This document shows positions 36,074 to 54,200 of a stretch of DNA of 64,000 bases, in pieces. Position 1 is the stretch's first letter; each line of letters starts with the position of its first letter. Below the pieces are notes generated by a model. That model had not been told where the DNA came from. It saw nothing but the letters and a program-made list of their open reading frames with translations, and ran no database searches. The position numbers were made by a program, and so were the translations under genes. The DNA comes from Actinomycetota bacterium. GTDB taxonomy: Bacteria; Actinomycetota; Aquicultoria; Subteraquimicrobiales; UBA9087. Where the stretch lies: contig JASEEZ010000003.1 of NCBI GenBank assembly GCA_030019215.1, positions 12,109 through 76,108 of the forward strand, given 5' to 3'.

Positions 36074-37879
36074 ATGGAGATCATCGAAACCCCCGAAGGA
36101 CGTTGCAAGCAGTGTTATGCCTGTGTTCGCCTCTGTCCCGTTAAAGCCATAAAGGTTGGCCAGGGACAGGTGAAAGTCGATAGCAAAAAATGCATTTTTT
36201 GCGGTCGCTGTATAGTCGCTTGTTCCCGAGGAGCCAAGGTTGTCGTCTCGGAGAGGGAGGCGGTCGAGGATTTGTTGGCCAAGGGCCAGGCCGTGGCAAT
36301 CCTGGCTCCCGAGTATGTGGCCTACTTTCATCCCACCGATCCCCTCAGAGTTCAAGCTGCCCTGTTGAAAATGGGTTTTCATGTTGTTGAGGATACTATC
36401 GTCGGCGAGGAGCTCGTGGCCGATGAGTATCTGCGCTTGTTCCGGGAGTCTAAGGAGCCCGTCATCCGCTCCGCTTGCCCAGTCATCGTGGAATGGGTGG
36501 AAAAGTACTTCCCCGACCTCCTCTCTTATCTTGCCCCCCTCGTTTCCCCACCCATAGCTCAGGGAAGATTGTGCAAGGAGATTTATGAGGGTGCCGCCAC
36601 GGTCTACATCGGTCCCTGCCTGGCCGTGAAGGCAGAGGCCAGAGCGGAGGGCCTTGAGGAGGCTCTCGATGCCGTCTTGACCTTTCCCGAGCTGGAGGAG
36701 GTGTTCAAGGGGGCGAAGATCGACCCAAAGTCTTTAAAGGGACTTCCTGCCGAAAAAAAGACCTCCAAATTGGCTGGCTTGCGCATTCTCCCTCAAAGGG
36801 TTTCCCTCTTCGGGGGTTTCCCTCGGGAGGAGATCGCCAGGAGAAGTCTCTTAGACCGCGATATTCGAGTGGTAAGGGATGTGGGCGAGATGCAACCCTT
36901 GGTGGAGGCCTTTGGCCGGAAAGAGGTGAAACCCAAGATAATCGATGCCCTGAGCTGTGATGGTTGTCTGGCCAGCCCCTTGATGGGAAACTCCCCGCGG
37001 CTAGCTATAAGTAAACTGAGCCTCTTTGCGAGGCGAAAGGTTGTGGAGAGGCACTACCAGAAATTGGCGAAGGGGGCGAGGAGCGCCGAAGATCGCACCA
37101 AAATACTTTCGGGGTTACCCTCCATCGAGATGGGGAGGAAATTTTCGTCCAAGAAGGTGGACTTTCCTCTGCCTCATGAAAGAGAGCTCAAGGAAATTTT
37201 GGCTTCCGGGAAGATCAAATCGGTGGAAGACATCCTCGATTGTGGCGCTTGTGGTTATGATACCTGCGAGGCCACGGCAATCGCCATTTATCAGGGGGAT
37301 GCGGAATGGGGGATGTGCTTTCCCCATCAAAGAGAGGAAATGGTTCGCCTAATGAAAGCCCTGGAGAAAACCTCCATAACCGATGGGGTGACCGGCTTGT
37401 TCAACTACCATGGTTTGACCCACTGTGTGGGGAAGGAGATCAAGCGATGTCAAAGATATCAGGATACTTTTTCGGTGATCATCTTTGACGTCGATTACTT
37501 CAAGCTCATCAACGACACGTACGGGCACGTGAAGGGCGACTTATTGCTCAAGCTTATTGCTGATGTCTTAAGGCAGAATTTGCGGGAGGCGGACTCCGCA
37601 GCTCGCCAGGGAGGCGATGAGTTCACGGTGGTCCTGCCGGAGACGACAAAAACGGAAGCATTCGCCGTGGGGGAGAAGCTTCGTCAGAGGGTCGGTGAGG
37701 TCTCCTTCAAATTAGATAGTAAGGAAAAGGTGAAGGCCACCATAAGCCTGGGCATCGCCGGTTATTCGCCCGGGATAGCGAATCCCGAAGAGTTGATGGA
37801 GTTGGCCGATCAGGCCATGTACAAGGCCAAGAAGAGTGGCAGAAATTGTGTCTACATTGCTCCCGATAAGGGTGTCTGA
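36074..37879 (+). CDS. [FeFe]-hydrogenase-like iron-sulfur sensory domain fused to a GGDEF diguanylate cyclase
   Basis: N-terminus has two ferredoxin-like CxxCxxC sites ('CKQCYACVRLCP', 'CIFCGRCIVAC'). Degenerate H-cluster-like motifs ('SACPVIVEW', 'GPCLAVKAE', 'LSCDGCLASPLMG'). Cys-rich 'CGACGYDTCEA'. C-terminal GGDEF with 'RQGGDEFTVVLPE'. Confidence 0.7.
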   Translation: MEIIETPEGRCKQCYACVRLCPVKAIKVGQGQVKVDSKKCIFCGRCIVACSRGAKVVVSEREAVEDLLAKGQAVAILAPEYVAYFHPTDPLRVQAALLKMGFHVVEDTIVGEELVADEYLRLFRESKEPVIRSACPVIVEWVEKYFPDLLSYLAPLVSPPIAQGRLCKEIYEGAATVYIGPCLAVKAEARAEGLEEALDAVLTFPELEEVFKGAKIDPKSLKGLPAEKKTSKLAGLRILPQRVSLFGGFPREEIARRSLLDRDIRVVRDVGEMQPLVEAFGRKEVKPKIIDALSCDGCLASPLMGNSPRLAISKLSLFARRKVVERHYQKLAKGARSAEDRTKILSGLPSIEMGRKFSSKKVDFPLPHERELKEILASGKIKSVEDILDCGACGYDTCEATAIAIYQGDAEWGMCFPHQREEMVRLMKALEKTSITDGVTGLFNYHGLTHCVGKEIKRCQRYQDTFSVIIFDVDYFKLINDTYGHVKGDLLLKLIADVLRQNLREADSAARQGGDEFTVVLPETTKTEAFAVGEKLRQRVGEVSFKLDSKEKVKATISLGIAGYSPGIANPEELMELADQAMYKAKKSGRNCVYIAPDKGV

Positions 37880-39077: not shown

Positions 39078-39215
39078 TGTCAGCTTAGAGCTCGGAGTTT
39101 AGAGCTTAGAGAAAAATCTTTTGTCTCTACGCTCTCTGCTCCCTGCTCTCTGCTTTCCTCGTTATTCGTCCTTTCGCCCTTCGTCCCTGACCCCTGGCCT
39201 CTGTCAACCGTCAAC
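39078..39215. repeat. ~135 bp repeat element, copy A (CAGCTTAGAGCTCGGAG...CTCTACGCTCTCTGCTCCCTGCTCTCTGCTTTCCTCGTTATTCGTCC...CCTGGCCTCTGTCA)
   Basis: About 95% identical to the reverse complement of 54062-54200. The termini are shared with a diverged third copy at 61141-61380. Confidence 0.7.
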
Positions 39216-40747: not shown

Positions 40748-41352
40748 GCCCCTCTCCCAAAGAGATATTCTCGAAATACCTGGATAAGGCCATAGCGGAG
40801 AGTCTTTCCTTGGCTGAGGAGGTGAGGGAGTGCAAGCGATGCGACCTTCCCGGCCGGGGGGATTTTTCTCCTCTTCCTGGGTCTGGCTATCCCTTGGCTG
40901 ATATTTTCTTGGTTAAGGATTTCCCCAACCGATTAGAGAGTGAGGAGGGCATCCCCTTTTTCGGGGAAGTGGGGGAGGCTTTAAGGCGCGCCTTTGTCAC
41001 CCTCGAGTTGGAGGTTGCCACTCTGTATGGTACCAATTCGATAAAGTGCCACATAACGGATCGGGTAAGTGAGCAGCAGATCGATGCCTGTTCTGAGCAT
41101 TTGAAGCTGGAAATAGAGATAGCTGAACCCAGGTTGATTTTAGCCATGGGTTCTCTAGCGGTATCCACTCTGCGGAGAGCTATCGGGCAAGGAGATGGGG
41201 AGCTTTCCTTCGAGCCAGGCGAGTTATTTCGGCCACGCCCGGACATTCAGGTTCTGGTTACCCACGATCCGGAGGCGGCTTTGAAGAAACCCCGGTTGAA
41301 GGGGGAGCTTTGGAGGGATCTCAAGAGACTCAAAGAACTATGTGGTAAATGA
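40744..41352 (+). CDS. uracil-DNA glycosylase superfamily protein, family 4-like Fe-S type with a divergent catalytic motif
   Basis: 'CKRCDL' plus 'C..(14)..C' 4-Cys set. 'IPFFGEVGEAL' motif B-like. The GE(A/G)PG catalytic motif is replaced by 'VKDFPN'. Confidence 0.55.
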   Translation: MSPSPKEIFSKYLDKAIAESLSLAEEVRECKRCDLPGRGDFSPLPGSGYPLADIFLVKDFPNRLESEEGIPFFGEVGEALRRAFVTLELEVATLYGTNSIKCHITDRVSEQQIDACSEHLKLEIEIAEPRLILAMGSLAVSTLRRAIGQGDGELSFEPGELFRPRPDIQVLVTHDPEAALKKPRLKGELWRDLKRLKELCGK

Positions 41353-41353
41353 A

Positions 41354-41384
41354 AGAGGAGCCCCGCCGTCGGCGGGGCTCCTCT
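41354..41384. terminator. GC-rich hairpin between convergent UDG-like and ferredoxin genes
   Basis: AGAGGAGCCCCGCC-GTC-GGCGGGGCTCCTCT perfect 14-bp stem. Flanks are only weakly U-rich. Confidence 0.5.
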
Positions 41385-41402
41385 TGCTCCTCTCGTCCTT
41401 TC

Positions 41403-41588
41403 TCAGTCCTCTTCGATCTTGATGGCTCCCATCGGGCACTCCTCGACGCAGATTCCGCAACCGGTGCACTCTTCTTCATTGACCACCACTGATATCTCAT
41501 CTACCAGGTCGAGCACCCCATTTGGGCAGCTATCGACGCAGATTCCGCAACCTGAGCACTCGTCTTTGTCGATTACTGGTCTGGACAT
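41403..41588 (-). CDS. 2x[4Fe-4S] ferredoxin
   Basis: 61 aa. 'CSGCGICVDSCP' and 'CTGCGICVEECP'. AAGGAG sits 8 nt before the ATG (MSRPV...). The track ORF is longer (77 aa). Confidence 0.75.
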   Translation of the reverse strand: MSRPVIDKDECSGCGICVDSCPNGVLDLVDEISVVVNEEECTGCGICVEECPMGAIKIEED

Positions 41589-41705
41589 TGTTTTCACTCC
41601 TTCCCCTCGTCGCGAATTTTCAAAAGATTTATACAAAAATTACTCGCGGTTGTAAAGGGAAATTTTGAAAAAATGAAGAAATTATCGAGGGAAACGGGGG
41701 TTGCC

Positions 41706-41840
41706 ATGGGCAGAAAAATCTTTTGGGCGATTTTGATCGCCTCTCTTCTCCTCCTGGCGGTGGGCGCCTATCACCGGGAATTCTCGGAGATCTACACCAA
41801 TGCCAGGTACATCTGTCTCTCTTGTGTGGGGATCGAGTGA
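41706..41840 (+). CDS. small membrane protein (44 aa) with C-terminal CxxC, translationally coupled to the NapH-like gene
   Basis: 'MGRKIFWAILIASLLLLAVGAYHREFSEIYTNARYICLSCVGIE', translated by hand; it is not in the track because it is under 60 aa. Its TGA stop overlaps the downstream ATG (ATGA). Confidence 0.45.
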   Translation: MGRKIFWAILIASLLLLAVGAYHREFSEIYTNARYICLSCVGIE

Positions 41841-42622
41841 TGGCCGGGAAAGCGCTGTTCTTTAAGAGCCTTAAGCGCCGGATAAAATATCAACTCCTCT
41901 TTCTGGTCTTCGCCAACGCCTATTTTTTATCATTTTTGAAGGTCATTCCCTGCCCCATCCTCAACTGCTATTCTTGTCCATTGGCGACCTTTGCCTGTCC
42001 CATCGGGACGATTCAACATTTTCTGGCAATCGGTGCTTTTCCCTTTGTTGTGGTTGGGGTGCTGGGTTTGGTTGGCGCCTTTGTGGGCAGGATGACCTGT
42101 GGCTGGCTCTGCCCCTTTGGTTTTCTTCAGGATCTCATGGCGAAGTTGAGCCGCAAGAAATACCCCATCCCCCATTTCTTAACCCATTCTCGCTTTGTTA
42201 TCCTGGTTGTTTTGGTGGTTTGCCTGCCATTTGTTTTGCACGAGCACTGGTTTTGCAAGCTGTGCCCGGCGGGTGTCCTGGAAGCCGGTCTCCCGGTGGT
42301 CGTGGTCAACCCCGATATCCGTTCCCAGATAGGCTTTCTCTTTGTGGTGAAGATAGTGATCCTTGTGGGATTTCTGGTCTGGATGGTCTTTTCAAAGAGA
42401 CCCTTTTGCCGAGTGGCCTGTCCATTGGGAGCGATCCTCTCCCTTTTCAATCGGGTGAGCTTTTACAGAATAAGGGTAACCGAAAGGAAAGCAATGTTTG
42501 AGGCTTGCCGAAAACTTTGCCCCGTCGATTTAAATATCTACGAAGACCCCGACTCCATCCACTGCGTTAGAGCCCTCGATTGCCTAAAGTGCCCCGGTCT
42601 CTCGTGGGGGAAGAGGACCTAA
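41840..42622 (+). CDS. NapH/MauN-like membrane polyferredoxin (COG0348 4Fe-4S binding protein)
   Basis: TM helices with 'CPIGT', 'CGWLCPFGFLQD', 'CKLCPAGVLE' and 'CRVACPLGA' Cys motifs. ATG 41840 chosen; the track ORF 41723 is an upstream in-frame extension. Confidence 0.7.
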   Translation: MAGKALFFKSLKRRIKYQLLFLVFANAYFLSFLKVIPCPILNCYSCPLATFACPIGTIQHFLAIGAFPFVVVGVLGLVGAFVGRMTCGWLCPFGFLQDLMAKLSRKKYPIPHFLTHSRFVILVVLVVCLPFVLHEHWFCKLCPAGVLEAGLPVVVVNPDIRSQIGFLFVVKIVILVGFLVWMVFSKRPFCRVACPLGAILSLFNRVSFYRIRVTERKAMFEACRKLCPVDLNIYEDPDSIHCVRALDCLKCPGLSWGKRT

Positions 42623-42652
42623 AAGCTTACCTCCAAAAAATTTTTACCCAAG

Positions 42653-42681
42653 ACTTGACAATATTAGACTTAGTTTTTATA
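42653..42681 (+). promoter_or_regulatory. sigma70-like promoter (TTGACA-17-TATATT) upstream of dnaK
   Basis: Read directly. About 45 nt upstream of the dnaK ATG. Confidence 0.5.
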
Positions 42682-42724
42682 TTAGTAATAGGCTTAGATA
42701 ATTGTGAAAAGGAGTGATACCGAA

Positions 42725-44596
42725 ATGGCAAAGGCGATTGGTGTCGATTTGGGGACGACTAACTCTTGTGTGGCCGTCTTGGAGGCAGGAGAATCTGTGG
42801 TTATCCCCAATGCTGAAGGGGGGAGGGTTACTCCTTCCGTTGTTGCTTTTTCCAAGACGGGCGAGGTACTGGTTGGGGAGGTGGCGAAGAGACAAGCCAT
42901 CGTCAACCCCGAGCACACTATAGGGTCGATCAAACGCTTGATGGGAACGGATGAGAAGATAAAAATCGAAGACAAGGAGTACACACCGCAACAGATTTCC
43001 GCCTTCATCCTTCAGAAGCTAAAGAGGGATGCCGAGGCCTACCTCGGCGAGAAGATCACTCAGGCTGTCGTCACCGTTCCCGCCTACTTCGACGATGCTC
43101 AGCGTACTGCCACCAAAGATGGGGGAACCATCGCTGGGCTCGAGGTCTTGAGGATTATCAATGAGCCGACCGCGGCCTCCCTGGCTTACGGTCTGGAAAA
43201 GGAAAAGGAGGAGAGGATTCTCGTCTTTGACCTGGGCGGGGGAACCTTTGACGTTTCCATCCTGGAGATAGGTGAGGGTGTCTTTGAGGTCAAGTCCACC
43301 AGCGGCAACACCCATCTGGGTGGAGACGATTGGGATCAGAAGGTCATCGATTGGATGGCCAACGATTTCAAGGCAAAACACGGCATCGATTTGAGGAAGG
43401 ATAAGATGGCGTTGCAGAGGCTCAAGGAGGCGGCCGAGAAGGCCAAGTGTGAGCTCTCCTCGGCTCTCACAACCGCCATTCATCTTCCCTTCATCACGGC
43501 GACCCCCGAGGGCCCTTTGCATCTTGAGATGACCTTAACCAGGTCGGAGTTGGAGAAAATGACCTACGATCTTTTGGAGAAGTGCACTGGTCCCTTCAAT
43601 CAGGCCATGAAGGACGCCGGTATCGAACCCAAGGATCTAGATCACGTGATCCTCGTCGGCGGAGCGACGCGCATGCCCATGGTCCGAGAGCTGATCAAGA
43701 AGTTGACCGGGGGCAAGGAACCCCATAAGGGGGTCAATCCCGATGAGGTTGTGGCCGTTGGGGCGGCCATCCAGGCTGGTGTTCTCATGGGTGAGGTCAA
43801 GGAAGTGCTGCTTCTCGATGTCACTCCTTTGTCTCTGGGCATCGAGACCAAGGGCAGTATCTTTACGAAGTTGATTGAGCGAAACACCACCATTCCCACG
43901 AAGAAAAGCGAGATATTTACCACGGCCGAGGACAACCAGACTAGCGTGGAGATACACGTCCTCCAGGGCGAGCGTCCGATGGCCACAGACAACAAGACCC
44001 TGGGCAAGTTTCATTTGATCGGCCTACCACCGGCGCCACGGGGCATACCCCAGATTGAAGTCGCCTTCGACATTGATGCTAATGGCATCGTTCATGTCTC
44101 GGCAAAGGATCTCGCTACCGGCAAAGAGCAGGCGATGACTGTAACCGGGACGAGCGCTCTGGCTAAAGAGGAGATCGGCAAGATGATTAAAGAGGCGGAG
44201 GCTCACGCCGAGGAGGATCGCCGCAGGAGAGAAGAGGCCGAAGTGAGAAATAATGCCGACAATCTAATTTACGCTACCGAGAAGGCTTTGAGGGAAGCGG
44301 GCGATAAGCTGAGCGCTGAGGATAGGTCCAAGATCGAGAGCGCTCTCACCGAGGCCAAGGAGGCCCTGAAGGGGACGGATATCCAGAGAATCAAGACCGC
44401 TGCCGAGAATCTCTCGCAGGCCTCCCTCAAGATAGGCGAGATACTCTACGCTGCCCAGCAGGCTAAAAGCCGGGCTCAGACTGGTGGAGAACAGGCTGGC
44501 CCCGCCGCTGGCGAGGGTCCCGCTGAGGGCGAGGTTGTCGATGCCGACTACGAGGTCGTTGACGAGGAAAAGAAGAAGGAGAAGGAAGAAAAGTAA
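42725..44596 (+). CDS. dnaK: molecular chaperone DnaK (Hsp70)
   Basis: '[20 protein letters not shown]', '[12 protein letters not shown]', and C-terminal EEVD-like acidic tail. Confidence 0.95.
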
Positions 44597-49526: not shown

Positions 49527-49793
49527 TTATTGAAATCTGCCTAGATCGCGCCGGTGAAGAACAGCTAAAATAGTCACGGTTTGAGCGCCAACTTCATAAA
49601 TTATTCGATAATCCCCCACTCGATACCGAAAAGTCTTTTCCGCCCCTTTTATGGTTTTTATTTTCTTGCCGGATGGGAAAGGGTTTTCTTGTAAGCCTTC
49701 TATCGCCTTCGCGGTGGAATTGAGAGTCTCCTTGGGGAGCTTTTTAAGATCGTTCTTAACTCGCCTTTTTGCTTCGAGTTTGAACTTTCTCAC
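49527..49793 (-). CDS. type II toxin, RelE/ParE family
   Basis: 88 aa. 'FKLEAKRRVKNDLKKL...YRVGDYRIIYEV' ParE/RelE pattern. Overlaps the upstream antitoxin gene. Confidence 0.7.
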   Translation of the reverse strand: MRKFKLEAKRRVKNDLKKLPKETLNSTAKAIEGLQENPFPSGKKIKTIKGAEKTFRYRVGDYRIIYEVGAQTVTILAVLHRRDLGRFQ

Positions 49794-50043
49794 CTTTTAC
49801 CTCAGCTAGTAATTCTTCCCAGGAGACAGAGGGCTCTTTTCTTGCCTCTTCGATAAAGGTTTTAAACTTTGGGTTATCCATGGAGAGAATTAAATTCTCA
49901 AGTTCCTCTTCGTCAACGGCAGTAAGTCTTGCGACCGGTCTCCCCCGTAGGGTTATAATATAACCCTTTACTTTGCCTGCTCGAAGCGATCTTAAGATGA
50001 GTGAAGCTTGGCTTTTTAGTTCCTTTACTCCAATAACTGGCAT
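49756..50043 (-). CDS. type II antitoxin, Phd/YefM family
   Basis: 'MPVIGVKELKSQASLILRSL...GYIITLRGRPVARL' Phd/YefM pattern. Start taken at MPVIG. Confidence 0.65.
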   Translation of the reverse strand: MPVIGVKELKSQASLILRSLRAGKVKGYIITLRGRPVARLTAVDEEELENLILSMDNPKFKTFIEEARKEPSVSWEELLAEVKGEKVQTRSKKAS

Positions 50044-50045
50044 AC

Positions 50046-50118
50046 CATACCCCTTAGTGGTCAATTAAGTAACCACTTTATTTTTACATCAGAAATTTTG
50101 TTTGTCAAGTGGTAACTC
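50046..50118 (-). promoter_or_regulatory. toxin-antitoxin promoter (TTGACA-16-TAAAAAT on the minus strand) overlapped by an imperfect inverted repeat GTTACCACTT/AAGTGGTTAC, a probable autoregulation operator
   Basis: Read on the minus strand: AGTTACCACTTGACAAACAAAATTTCTGATGTAAAAATAAAGTGGTTAC. Confidence 0.45.
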
Positions 50119-51148
50119 ATAGCGAGGTCTGTATCAAATCTTCTACTTTACCTTTCAGTCCCGAGGAGACGTGGACCTTTCCGTCCGAGGTAACGAGCAC
50201 TCCTTCGATATCCCTGGTTTGTTCAATGAATTTCATCCCCCTGGGATAGCCCATTACGAAGATGGCCGTGGAGAGGATGTCCGCCTCCGCACAACTACGG
50301 CCGGTCACGACCGTCACGCTCATCACGCCACCGGCGGGTCTACCGGTCTTCGGGTCGAGGATGTGGTGGTAGCGTTTTCCATTCTTGATAAAATATTGCT
50401 GGTAGTCCCCCGAGGTGCTCACGCTCTTGTTCACCAGGCTCAAAATCCCGATGGTCTGCCCGCTCTTTCGAGGGTGCTCTATGCCGATCCTCCAGGGCTC
50501 GCCGTCGGGCTTGGAACCCCGGACCCTGGTGGTGCTCCCCGTGGTTATCAGGGCCTGGGTCACCCCCCTTTTCTTTAATGACTCTATAGCCTTGTCTGCG
50601 GCGTATCCCTTGGCCACTCCTCCGAGGTCGATCATCATCCCGGGCCTTTTGAGCAAGACGGTTTTGGTCTTCTCATCGATTTTGATATCTTTCAGGTCGA
50701 ACAAGGGTAAAATCCCGTCTATTTCACTCTGTCTTGGGAGCCGCGGATTCTCACCGAATTTCCAGAGCGGAATCAGAGGACCCACGGCAATGTTGAAGGT
50801 TCCCCCCGTCTCCTCCCCGTAAGATTTACTCAAAGAGATCACCGCGAGGACTTCGTCGGACACTTCGACTGCCTTCTTTCCCGCCGCCCGATTTATCTTC
50901 GAAATCTCGCTCTTTGGGTCGAAGAAGTTCATCGAGTCCTCCACTTTTCTCACCTCGGCCATGGCTTCGTCCACAGCTTTCTCAACTCGGGCTTTGCTAT
51001 CTCCGTAGGCCTTGATTTTAACGAAGGTGTCCAGGAGTATCTCTTCTCTGACGAAGGGCTCTCCGGTATAGCCCCGGTTTTGGGTCGTCCACAGGATGAC
51101 CCCCAAGCCGATGAGCAGGATGGCAATCCAAATCCACTTCGGTTTCAT
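50117..51148 (-). CDS. apbE: FAD:protein FMN transferase (ApbE family)
   Basis: 343 aa. N-terminal signal/TM. 'LGGVAKGYAADKA', 'SGDYQQYFI..GKRYHHILDPKTG' ApbE motifs. Confidence 0.8.
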   Translation of the reverse strand: MKPKWIWIAILLIGLGVILWTTQNRGYTGEPFVREEILLDTFVKIKAYGDSKARVEKAVDEAMAEVRKVEDSMNFFDPKSEISKINRAAGKKAVEVSDEVLAVISLSKSYGEETGGTFNIAVGPLIPLWKFGENPRLPRQSEIDGILPLFDLKDIKIDEKTKTVLLKRPGMMIDLGGVAKGYAADKAIESLKKRGVTQALITTGSTTRVRGSKPDGEPWRIGIEHPRKSGQTIGILSLVNKSVSTSGDYQQYFIKNGKRYHHILDPKTGRPAGGVMSVTVVTGRSCAEADILSTAIFVMGYPRGMKFIEQTRDIEGVLVTSDGKVHVSSGLKGKVEDLIQTSL

Positions 51149-54061: not shown

Positions 54062-54200
54062 CAGAGGCCAGGGTTCAGGGACGAGGGACGAAGGACGAAT
54101 AACGAGGAAAGCAGAGAGCAGGGAGCAGAGAGCGTAGAGGCAAAAGATTTTTCTCTAAGCTCTAAGCTCCGAGCTCTAAGCTCCAAGGAACCAGGAACAA
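54062..54200. repeat. ~135 bp repeat element, copy B (inverted relative to copy A at 39078-39215)
   Basis: The reverse complement aligns at about 95% identity with 39078-39215. Confidence 0.7.

Follow-up and report, generated by a model that had tools for sequence, protein, structure and literature searches.

A gene for a small membrane peptide ending in a CxxC motif, and the gene for a NapH-like membrane polyferredoxin directly downstream of it, were characterized in a 64,000-nucleotide stretch of DNA from an Actinomycetota bacterium (the window; GenBank assembly GCA_030019215.1, contig JASEEZ010000003.1, positions 12,109 to 76,108 of the forward strand). On comparative grounds the two proteins are very likely subunits of one module. 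Together they probably pass reducing power through the membrane to extracellular thiol/disulfide proteins, and the pair may be an iron-sulfur (Fe-S)-driven two-subunit transmembrane disulfide reductase doing the job of CcdA/DsbD, a reading from sequence to which we give even odds (probability about 0.5). The features that carry this reading are the following.

41706..41840, plus strand: small peptide open reading frame (ORF), 44 aa plus stop, from sequence and translation; sequence MGRKIFWAILIASLLLLAVGAYHREFSEIYTNARYICLSCVGIE
41838..41842, plus strand: stop/start junction TGATG, read in the sequence, with the peptide stop TGA at 41838-41840 and the polyferredoxin ATG at 41840-41842
41840..42622, plus strand: NapH-like membrane polyferredoxin, 260 aa, matching Pfam Fer4_5

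The translated peptide contains a single hydrophobic helix and the C-terminal sequence ICLSCVGIE, in which the CxxC is formed by C37 and C40 (C37-L-S-C40-V-G-I-E, then stop); both cysteine codons are TGT, i.e., the window carries the Cys form. One base (41840) belongs to both the peptide stop and the polyferredoxin start, which implies translational coupling of the two genes. An equivalent one-base overlap, as TAATG, was found in the relative L081 (74% polyferredoxin identity), where the small ORF is present in the DNA although it was not called. A preliminary description of this DNA, made from the letters alone, had reported a 44-aa ORF with one transmembrane helix and a C-terminal CxxC before the polyferredoxin gene, which is correct, and an ATGA overlap, which has to be read as TGATG. 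The same description called the small subunit unannotated; the 44-aa gene is in fact called, at 93% identity, in three public assemblies, and a family model for it exists (see below). A longer, 55-aa reading from an ATG at 41673 was rejected: a 1-nt deletion between the two ATGs in three sister assemblies, in which the 44-aa gene is called, breaks its frame, and the extension is therefore not conserved. Between the window and the close relative L083 the small ORF differs by 12 synonymous and three non-synonymous changes (pS 0.39, pN 0.03), and by this comparison it is under purifying selection. The small ORF is, as judged from these alignments, a real gene conserved at the amino-acid level.

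The pairing was examined in 80 genome loci encoding polyferredoxin relatives (L001-L080), drawn from more than 15 phyla, and in five close relatives of the window (L081-L085). An ORF with a C..C[IVLM]G[ILVM] tail was found directly upstream of the polyferredoxin gene in 50 of the 80 loci, typically 43-58 aa long with an ATG start. A search for the same tail in all six frames of the remaining 30 loci gave two occurrences, one of them a true homologue 3.8 kb upstream. When the selenocysteine (Sec) forms described below are included, the peptide accompanies the polyferredoxin in 67 of the 80 loci (50 adjacent Cys-type, 1 distant Cys-type, 13 adjacent Sec-type and 3 nearby Sec-type). The two genes are usually separated by a short gap or overlap, and gaps of 100-170 nt were found in several loci. 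The peptide is thus conserved in sequence upstream of homologous polyferredoxin genes, and the earlier suggestion that it is a genuine accessory partner of the polyferredoxin is borne out. In five Planctomycetota loci (L065, L067, L068, L073, and L075) no CxxC peptide was found upstream of the polyferredoxin gene. These five contain another conserved upstream ORF ending in ...GGV.RDESG.I.QTY.GE.P..C[PAS]T-stop, with a single C-terminal Cys, which may encode an alternative polyferredoxin partner.

The peptide family itself is not new. The NCBIfam model NF040920 ("CD1871A family CXXC motif-containing protein") matched 38 of 50 positional homologues of the peptide (best E 1.1e-17). Proteins of this family are about 38-50 aa long and combine a single hydrophobic helix with the C-terminal motif C-x-x-C-[IV]-G-[IL]-G; the window peptide is built alike, a small protein with one hydrophobic helix and the CxxC at its extreme C-terminus. 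The window peptide scored 27.6-28.3 bits against this model (E 1.2e-6 to 2e-6; curated cut-off 32 bits), and we treat it, from this similarity, as a divergent member. A protein search with the window peptide as single sequence gave one near-identical match, and a profile was needed to find more. A profile including the window peptide retrieved proteins named CD1871A family by NCBI at about 1e-15. At 90% identity 1330 clusters were found, several of them so named, and a search of representatives at 50% identity gave 1471 clusters. In all of the best 150 of these 1471 the match was the extreme C-terminus of a protein of 41-149 aa, and no fusion to another domain was seen among them. C37, C40 and G42 are invariant in the peptide alignment and G20 is nearly so. 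NF040920 is catalogued by name, without an assigned function.

In 16 of the 67 loci with a peptide, an in-frame TGA was found exactly at a Cys of the CxxC, at Cys1 in 15 and at Cys2 in one. Thirteen of these are among the 30 loci first scored as lacking the peptide; 12 of the 13 read ...L-[TGA]-L-S-C-I-G-[IV]-G-stop and one reads C-L-S-[TGA]-I-G-L-E-stop. In Desulfobacterales loci, three further U-x-x-C copies were found at a distance of 0.8-1.5 kb upstream. The sites are listed as locus and position.

L002:2027, L006:3660, L009:3960, L011:3786, L012:1241, L025:3988
L026:3802, L029:3988, L030:1072, L035:3988, L038:3962
L047:739, L060:3764, L008:3213, L016:3019, L032:2513

When the TGA was translated as Cys, five of the eight TGA-form peptides tested matched NF040920, without a match to any other family. 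Past the UGA the sequence folds into a hairpin of 5-8 bp. This hairpin begins 11-12 nt after the UGA and mostly has a GGGU loop in the 12 adjacent UxxC loci, where its 5' arm is formed by the Gly-Ile/Val-Gly codons and its 3' arm is located past the true stop. The remaining four TGA loci show a similar fold with slightly different spacing, weak in one of them. The hairpin is not present in Cys-type loci encoding the same residues, and its mean minimum free energy was -9.9 kcal/mol in TGA loci vs. -5.4 kcal/mol in Cys loci (Mann-Whitney p = 4e-5). Covariation in the stem was modest, with 80% of cells paired and three compensatory pairs, and 26 of 500 shuffles of the gap-free alignment scored as high. 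The hairpin agrees with the rule for the bacterial selenocysteine insertion sequence (SECIS), in which the apical loop lies 16-37 nt from the UGA, with a G in the first loop positions (PMC13188914). A UGA aligned to Cys together with a SECIS-like hairpin, found in most of these loci and in relatives of the window only, makes the TGA-form peptides look like selenocysteine forms (UxxC, once CxxU). Such forms are at present shortened or overlooked by gene callers.

The polyferredoxin belongs to the Fer4_5/NapH-like superfamily: it matched Pfam PF12801 (Fer4_5) in two stretches (E 5.3e-19, 68.4 bits; cut-off 22) and has the two repeats of transmembrane helices with CX3CP. It contains four transmembrane helices, with CX3CP motifs at C87/C91 (after helix 2) and C190/C194 (after helix 4) predicted to be cytoplasmic, and its outward loops carry C43-x2-C46-P...C53-P (loop 1) and C139-x2-C142-P (loop 3). 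Conservation over 81 polyferredoxin sequences was as follows.

C87, C91, C190, C194 (CX3CP motifs): 100% conserved
C43, C53, C142 (loops 1 and 3): 100% conserved
C46 (loop 1): 99%, with a single exception
C139 (loop 3): variable, tracking the peptide type

The C-terminal ferredoxin-like domain usually has eight Cys in this family, of which three are gone in the window copy and in its 74% relative; by the usual 2x[4Fe-4S] ligand scheme, at most one cluster would be left in the window protein. This degenerate domain lies at 42476-42619 of the window, in the same lineage that has a divergent stand-alone ferredoxin at 41403-41588, which may compensate for it.

Similarity to the NapH and NosR models was weak (1.5e-12 and 1.4e-9, respectively), with 47.6 bits against TIGR02163 (NapH/MauN; cut-off 213) and 40.5 bits against NF007013 (NapH; cut-off 234), and neither NapG/NapA nor mau genes accompany the protein. 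It is, as far as these comparisons go, NapH-like at superfamily level only, and the earlier label "NapH/MauN-type" does not hold. It shares with Escherichia coli NapH the four-helix domain, the two CX3CP motifs, the C-terminal ferredoxin-like domain and the Fer4_5 match. An alignment shows that E. coli NapH, in contrast, is without the loop-1 NCYxCPxxxxxCPxG and the loop-3 (C)xxCPxG of the window family; besides, no NapG or nap operon goes with the window protein, its partner is a CxxC peptide and its ferredoxin domain is degenerate. A NapH-type quinol dehydrogenase that feeds a periplasmic reductase and includes the peptide as a lesser structural component would account for the weak model similarities and for the CX3CP motifs and ferredoxin domain that are common to NapH. 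This role is nevertheless highly improbable, as the scores are far under the family cut-offs, no napG/napA, nos or rdh genes were found in the window or recurring in the 80 loci, NapH does not have the loop cysteines, and purely structural subunits would not normally be given selenocysteine.

Residue 139 of the polyferredoxin (window 42254-42256) was found to co-vary with the type of the peptide across L001-L080, although the two are encoded by separate genes.

Loci with a Cys-type peptide: residue 139 is Cys in 43 and Ser in 8
Loci with an adjacent Sec-type peptide (13): residue 139 is Cys in 2 and Ser in 11

For these counts the Fisher p was 5.9e-6, uncorrected for phylogeny, and the three additional Sec-type loci have Ser at this position too. 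The polyferredoxins have on average more lysine and arginine (K+R) in the N-terminus (4.0) and loop 2 (6.4) than in loop 1 (2.1) and loop 3 (2.0); this bias, together with a Cys-rich C-terminal domain without export signal, places the polyferredoxin N-in/C-in with loops 1 and 3 outside. The peptides are basic on the N-side (K+R 2.9; aspartate plus glutamate, D+E, 0.3) and have an acidic C-terminal tail of about 22 residues (K+R 1.6, D+E 2.3), from which an N-in/C-out orientation follows. By these predictions the peptide CxxC and the loop cysteines of the polyferredoxin share the outer face of the membrane. The alternation of Sec and Cys at the first Cys, with the concerted Cys-to-Ser change in the outward loop of the partner, points to the CxxC of the peptide as a catalytic redox centre.

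All-against-all clustering of neighbour ORFs gave one recurrent family besides the pair itself, that of thioredoxin-fold proteins. With a local hidden Markov model (HMM), thioredoxin-fold ORFs were found within 4 kb in 26 of the 80 loci, and on the same strand within 500 nt in 17. Among 45 same-strand adjacent genes the top Pfam families were Thioredoxin (8), AhpC-TSA (6) and Redoxin (6). These TlpA-like neighbours bear signal peptides or lipoboxes, and many have WCxPC; secreted TlpA-like proteins next to the pair suggest that thiol/disulfide chemistry takes place on the outside of the membrane. The gene order Redoxin-peptide-polyferredoxin was found in six of six places in Aminicenantales, with an ATGA overlap between the first two genes. 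Three loci contain a TrxB-like flavoprotein gene with a CATC motif (L017:2112-3071, L019:1667-2626, and L023:2013-2972), and the genes stand on the same strand in the order TrxB-like, TlpA-like lipoprotein, peptide, polyferredoxin; in these loci a cytoplasmic source different from ferredoxin may supply the electrons. Unrelated neighbours, e.g., Thiamine_BP and SH3 domains, were found in other lineages. The gene that directly follows the polyferredoxin gene in L053 (4768-5373) encodes a TlpA-like lipoprotein and is broken by a frameshift at its WATF...C active site, so that it runs in two frames; this is either a pseudogene or an assembly error.

The neighbours also bear on a role in metal handling. 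CcoG, a relative of NapH, has been proposed as a cupric reductase, and the pair could by analogy reduce or hand over Cu(II) or Hg(II), with the CxxC of the peptide as the metal site. CxxC is a classic soft-metal motif, and metal-binding selenoproteins of the UxxU type exist (PMC13188914). No metal-handling family recurred among the 45 same-strand adjacent genes, however, and no P-type ATPase, CopZ or MerR/MerT/MerP recurred there or in the clustered neighbourhoods; nor did any CcoG-type model match the polyferredoxin, so that we regard this role as very unlikely. Both the metal-handling and the NapH-type quinol dehydrogenase roles thus have little support. The preliminary description had proposed that thiol or metal reducing equivalents are delivered across the membrane: the thiol part agrees with the Sec variants, the co-variation of residue 139 and the thioredoxin-fold lipoprotein neighbours, and the metal part falls away with the absence of a recurrent metal transporter or chaperone.

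A catalytic CxxC, TlpA-like neighbours and an Fe-S entry side together make an Fe-S-driven transmembrane disulfide reductase the best model. In this model electrons would enter on the cytoplasmic side through the C-terminal ferredoxin-like domain of the polyferredoxin, and in the window lineage the neighbouring stand-alone ferredoxin may feed this degenerate domain. From there they would travel by way of the CX3CP cysteines, on the inner side of the membrane, to a Cys-rich site on the other side, to which the two outward loops contribute C43, C46, C53, C139, and C142. This site would reduce the C-terminal CxxC of the peptide, which, with the peptide anchored N-in/C-out, would be on the same outer face as the loop cysteines. 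The reduced peptide, or the peptide-polyferredoxin site, would keep extracytoplasmic thioredoxin-fold proteins or other disulfides reduced, by Fe-S-driven chemistry in the manner of ferredoxin:thioredoxin reductase. With low-potential Fe-S at the entry side, electron flow in the reductive direction is the more plausible. We infer the topology, the direction of electron flow, the division of the cysteines between cluster and disulfide, and the identity of the clients.

The main rival is a generic transmembrane electron wire, in which the cysteines of the peptide and the loops would be the ligands of an Fe-S cluster at or within the outer membrane leaflet and serve unspecified periplasmic or extracellular acceptors. 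In published structures of NqrD/E and RnfA/E, an intramembrane cluster is reportedly held jointly by the two subunits. Such a wire would fit the four invariant loop cysteines followed by Pro (C-x2-C-P, C-P, C-P), which are ferredoxin-ligand-like, the very hydrophobic context of the CxxC (ICLSCIGIG), the lack of a thioredoxin-fold neighbour in most loci, and the view of NapH-like proteins as modular transmembrane electron conduits (PMC8238504). Sec in place of Cys1 in 15 loci with the Cys-to-Ser change at residue 139 is, however, typical of chemistry between a nucleophile and a resolving residue and not of a fixed ligand, and the only recurrent neighbours are proteins of the thiol:disulfide oxidoreductase type. 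On balance the wire appears rather unlikely.

Several observations weigh against the disulfide reductase. An adjacent thioredoxin-fold gene is absent in about two thirds of the loci, and the local thioredoxin-fold HMM found none in the window. In related Actinomycetota a thioredoxin-fold lipoprotein gene lies just upstream of the peptide gene, and its product is without CxxC, as in the following three cases.

L050:2964-3569, thioredoxin-fold lipoprotein without CxxC
L057:3251-3802, thioredoxin-fold lipoprotein without CxxC
L071:3185-3673, thioredoxin-fold lipoprotein without CxxC

The CP-type motifs of the loops resemble Fe-S ligands, so that the peptide cysteines could be cluster ligands instead of a disulfide, and selenocysteine occurs also in some selenoproteins with Fe-S domains (PMC13188914). 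The topology was assigned by the positive-inside rule alone, loop 1 of the polyferredoxin was poorly predicted in structure (predicted local distance difference test, pLDDT, 51-59), the p value for residue 139 takes no account of phylogeny, and the window peptide scores below the curated cut-off of its family model. Literature searches yielded no paper about the peptide family and nothing on the pair beyond PMC8238504.

Upstream of the pair, on the opposite strand, lies the gene of a small ferredoxin.

41403..41588, minus strand: 2x[4Fe-4S] ferredoxin, 61 aa, Pfam Fer4 E 1.4e-18, two CxxCxxCxxxCP motifs
41589..41705, no strand: divergent intergenic region of 117 bp, from the alignment with relatives
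41355..41383, minus strand: hairpin rich in GC, then UUUCAUUU; folding energy -33.4 kcal/mol (z -5.5), with equal stability in 0 of 200 shuffles

The ferredoxin gene was kept beside the polyferredoxin operon, in the divergent arrangement, in all five close relatives (L081-L085), down to 74% polyferredoxin identity. It was adjacent in none of the 80 wider loci; a single one, L012, has a 2x[4Fe-4S] ferredoxin gene within its 4-kb flanks, about 2.5 kb downstream and on the opposite strand. The ferredoxin was therefore rejected as a conserved partner outside the lineage. Divergent transcription of a soluble 61-aa ferredoxin, as described earlier, was confirmed, with the start codons 117 bp and not 115 bp apart; its general role as electron donor of the module did not stand, the arrangement being limited to close relatives. 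Within the lineage it is a possible cytoplasmic electron donor. That it is a dedicated donor, co-evolved with the module, would agree with its retention in the relatives and with the loss of three of eight cysteines from the polyferredoxin domain of exactly this lineage, for which an external ferredoxin would be useful; the arrangement, however, goes back to one evolutionary event, and ferredoxins of this size are promiscuous, which leaves this donor role doubtful.

The intergenic region is presumably where the two divergent genes share their promoter/operator. In it the block AAAAGATTTATA ... TTGTAAAGGnAAATTT was kept down to the relative with 74% identity, while the flanking intergenic sequence diverged, and judging from this conservation the block may serve these genes as operator or promoter. 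A sigma-70 consensus scan gave no match between the ferredoxin gene and the small ORF. The hairpin at 41355..41383 is likely the intrinsic terminator of the ferredoxin gene, common to the convergent UDG gene; it was not listed by the pattern scan. No RNA family was found by Rfam in 41000-43000.

The window neighbours of the module are UDG, the ferredoxin gene and a dnaK operon. A near-consensus dnaK promoter (TTGACA-17-TATATT, 42655-42683) lies directly past the polyferredoxin stop, with no terminator called between. The order polyferredoxin-dnaK was found in five of five close relatives, with grpE, dnaJ, and hspR next where the contigs reach. An ApbE flavin transferase gene (50117-51148, minus strand; Pfam E 2e-91) lies 7.5 kb downstream of the module, and in L081 an ApbE gene likewise lies past the dnaK-hspR genes on their downstream side. 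NapH-like systems with flavin mononucleotide (FMN)-binding domains are usually accompanied by ApbE; no such domain was found in the polyferredoxin by Pfam, and none was seen beside the module. Between clpB and apbE, a ParE toxin and a Phd/YefM antitoxin are encoded at 49527-50064 (minus strand). A 601-aa protein encoded at 36074-37879 (plus strand) combines a ferredoxin-like N-terminus, an [FeFe]-hydrogenase large-subunit domain and a GGDEF diguanylate cyclase domain, and looks like a hydrogenase-type sensor tied to c-di-GMP signalling. Besides, a 122-nt inverted repeat with 95% identity was found at 39082-39203 and 54062-54182, with the copies in or beside short, spurious-looking ORFs.

The reading of the pair as one system and the selenocysteine forms of the peptide appear to be undescribed in searchable sources. 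Neither NF040920 nor the CD1871A name is in the table of 119 prokaryotic selenoprotein families of a 2026 review (PMC13188914), the Haft 2022 selenoprotein preprint makes no mention of the family, and the pairing with the polyferredoxin, the Sec forms and the co-variation of residue 139 were in none of the searched literature. We tentatively propose that the CD1871A peptide and this loop-cysteine subclass of NapH-like proteins could be an undescribed kind of transmembrane disulfide reductase, driven by Fe-S chemistry and ferredoxin and replacing CcdA/DsbD in many anaerobic lineages, with the UxxC forms as a new selenoprotein family. Extracytoplasmic Cys reduction in strict anaerobes and in many uncultured phyla is known mainly through CcdA/DsbD. 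If the proposal is true, a second, Fe-S route fed by low-potential ferredoxin would alter the annotation of envelope redox homeostasis, cytochrome maturation and oxidative-damage repair, a small-protein family of about 1,500 clusters (at 50% identity), so far catalogued without a role, would gain a function, and a subclass would be defined of the poorly understood NapH-like membrane fold, of which we know of no solved structure. The Sec variants are a natural clue to which peptide Cys is catalytic, as well as an experimental handle.

Compared with known systems, the pair shows likeness at several levels. In flavinylated NapH-like systems such as NosR and PceC, a NapH-like Fe-S protein hands electrons on, through the membrane, to a small redox module on the outside (Meheust et al., 2021; PMC8238504); there the outer module is an FMN-binding domain flavinylated by ApbE, whereas here it would be the CxxC/UxxC peptide with the loop cysteines, and the pair falls outside that group, defined by an FMN-binding domain with ApbE nearby, as the polyferredoxin gave no FMN_bind match. 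With ferredoxin:thioredoxin reductase and HdrB-type proteins it would share a [4Fe-4S]-type site by a redox-active Cys pair, through which one-electron donors drive disulfide reduction; those proteins are soluble and unrelated in sequence, and the cluster/disulfide geometry is putative here. Closest in proposed role, that of keeping secreted TlpA/ResA-like proteins reduced, and in genomic adjacency to such proteins are CcdA and DsbD. Neither the peptide nor the polyferredoxin showed homology to the DsbD_2/DsbD transmembrane domains in Pfam/NCBIfam, and CcdA/DsbD work with cysteine pairs alone and a cytoplasmic thioredoxin, in contrast to the Fe-S motifs and ferredoxin-like entry domain found here. 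The resemblance of the pair to CcdA/DsbD is thus an analogy of proposed function and not one of membership.

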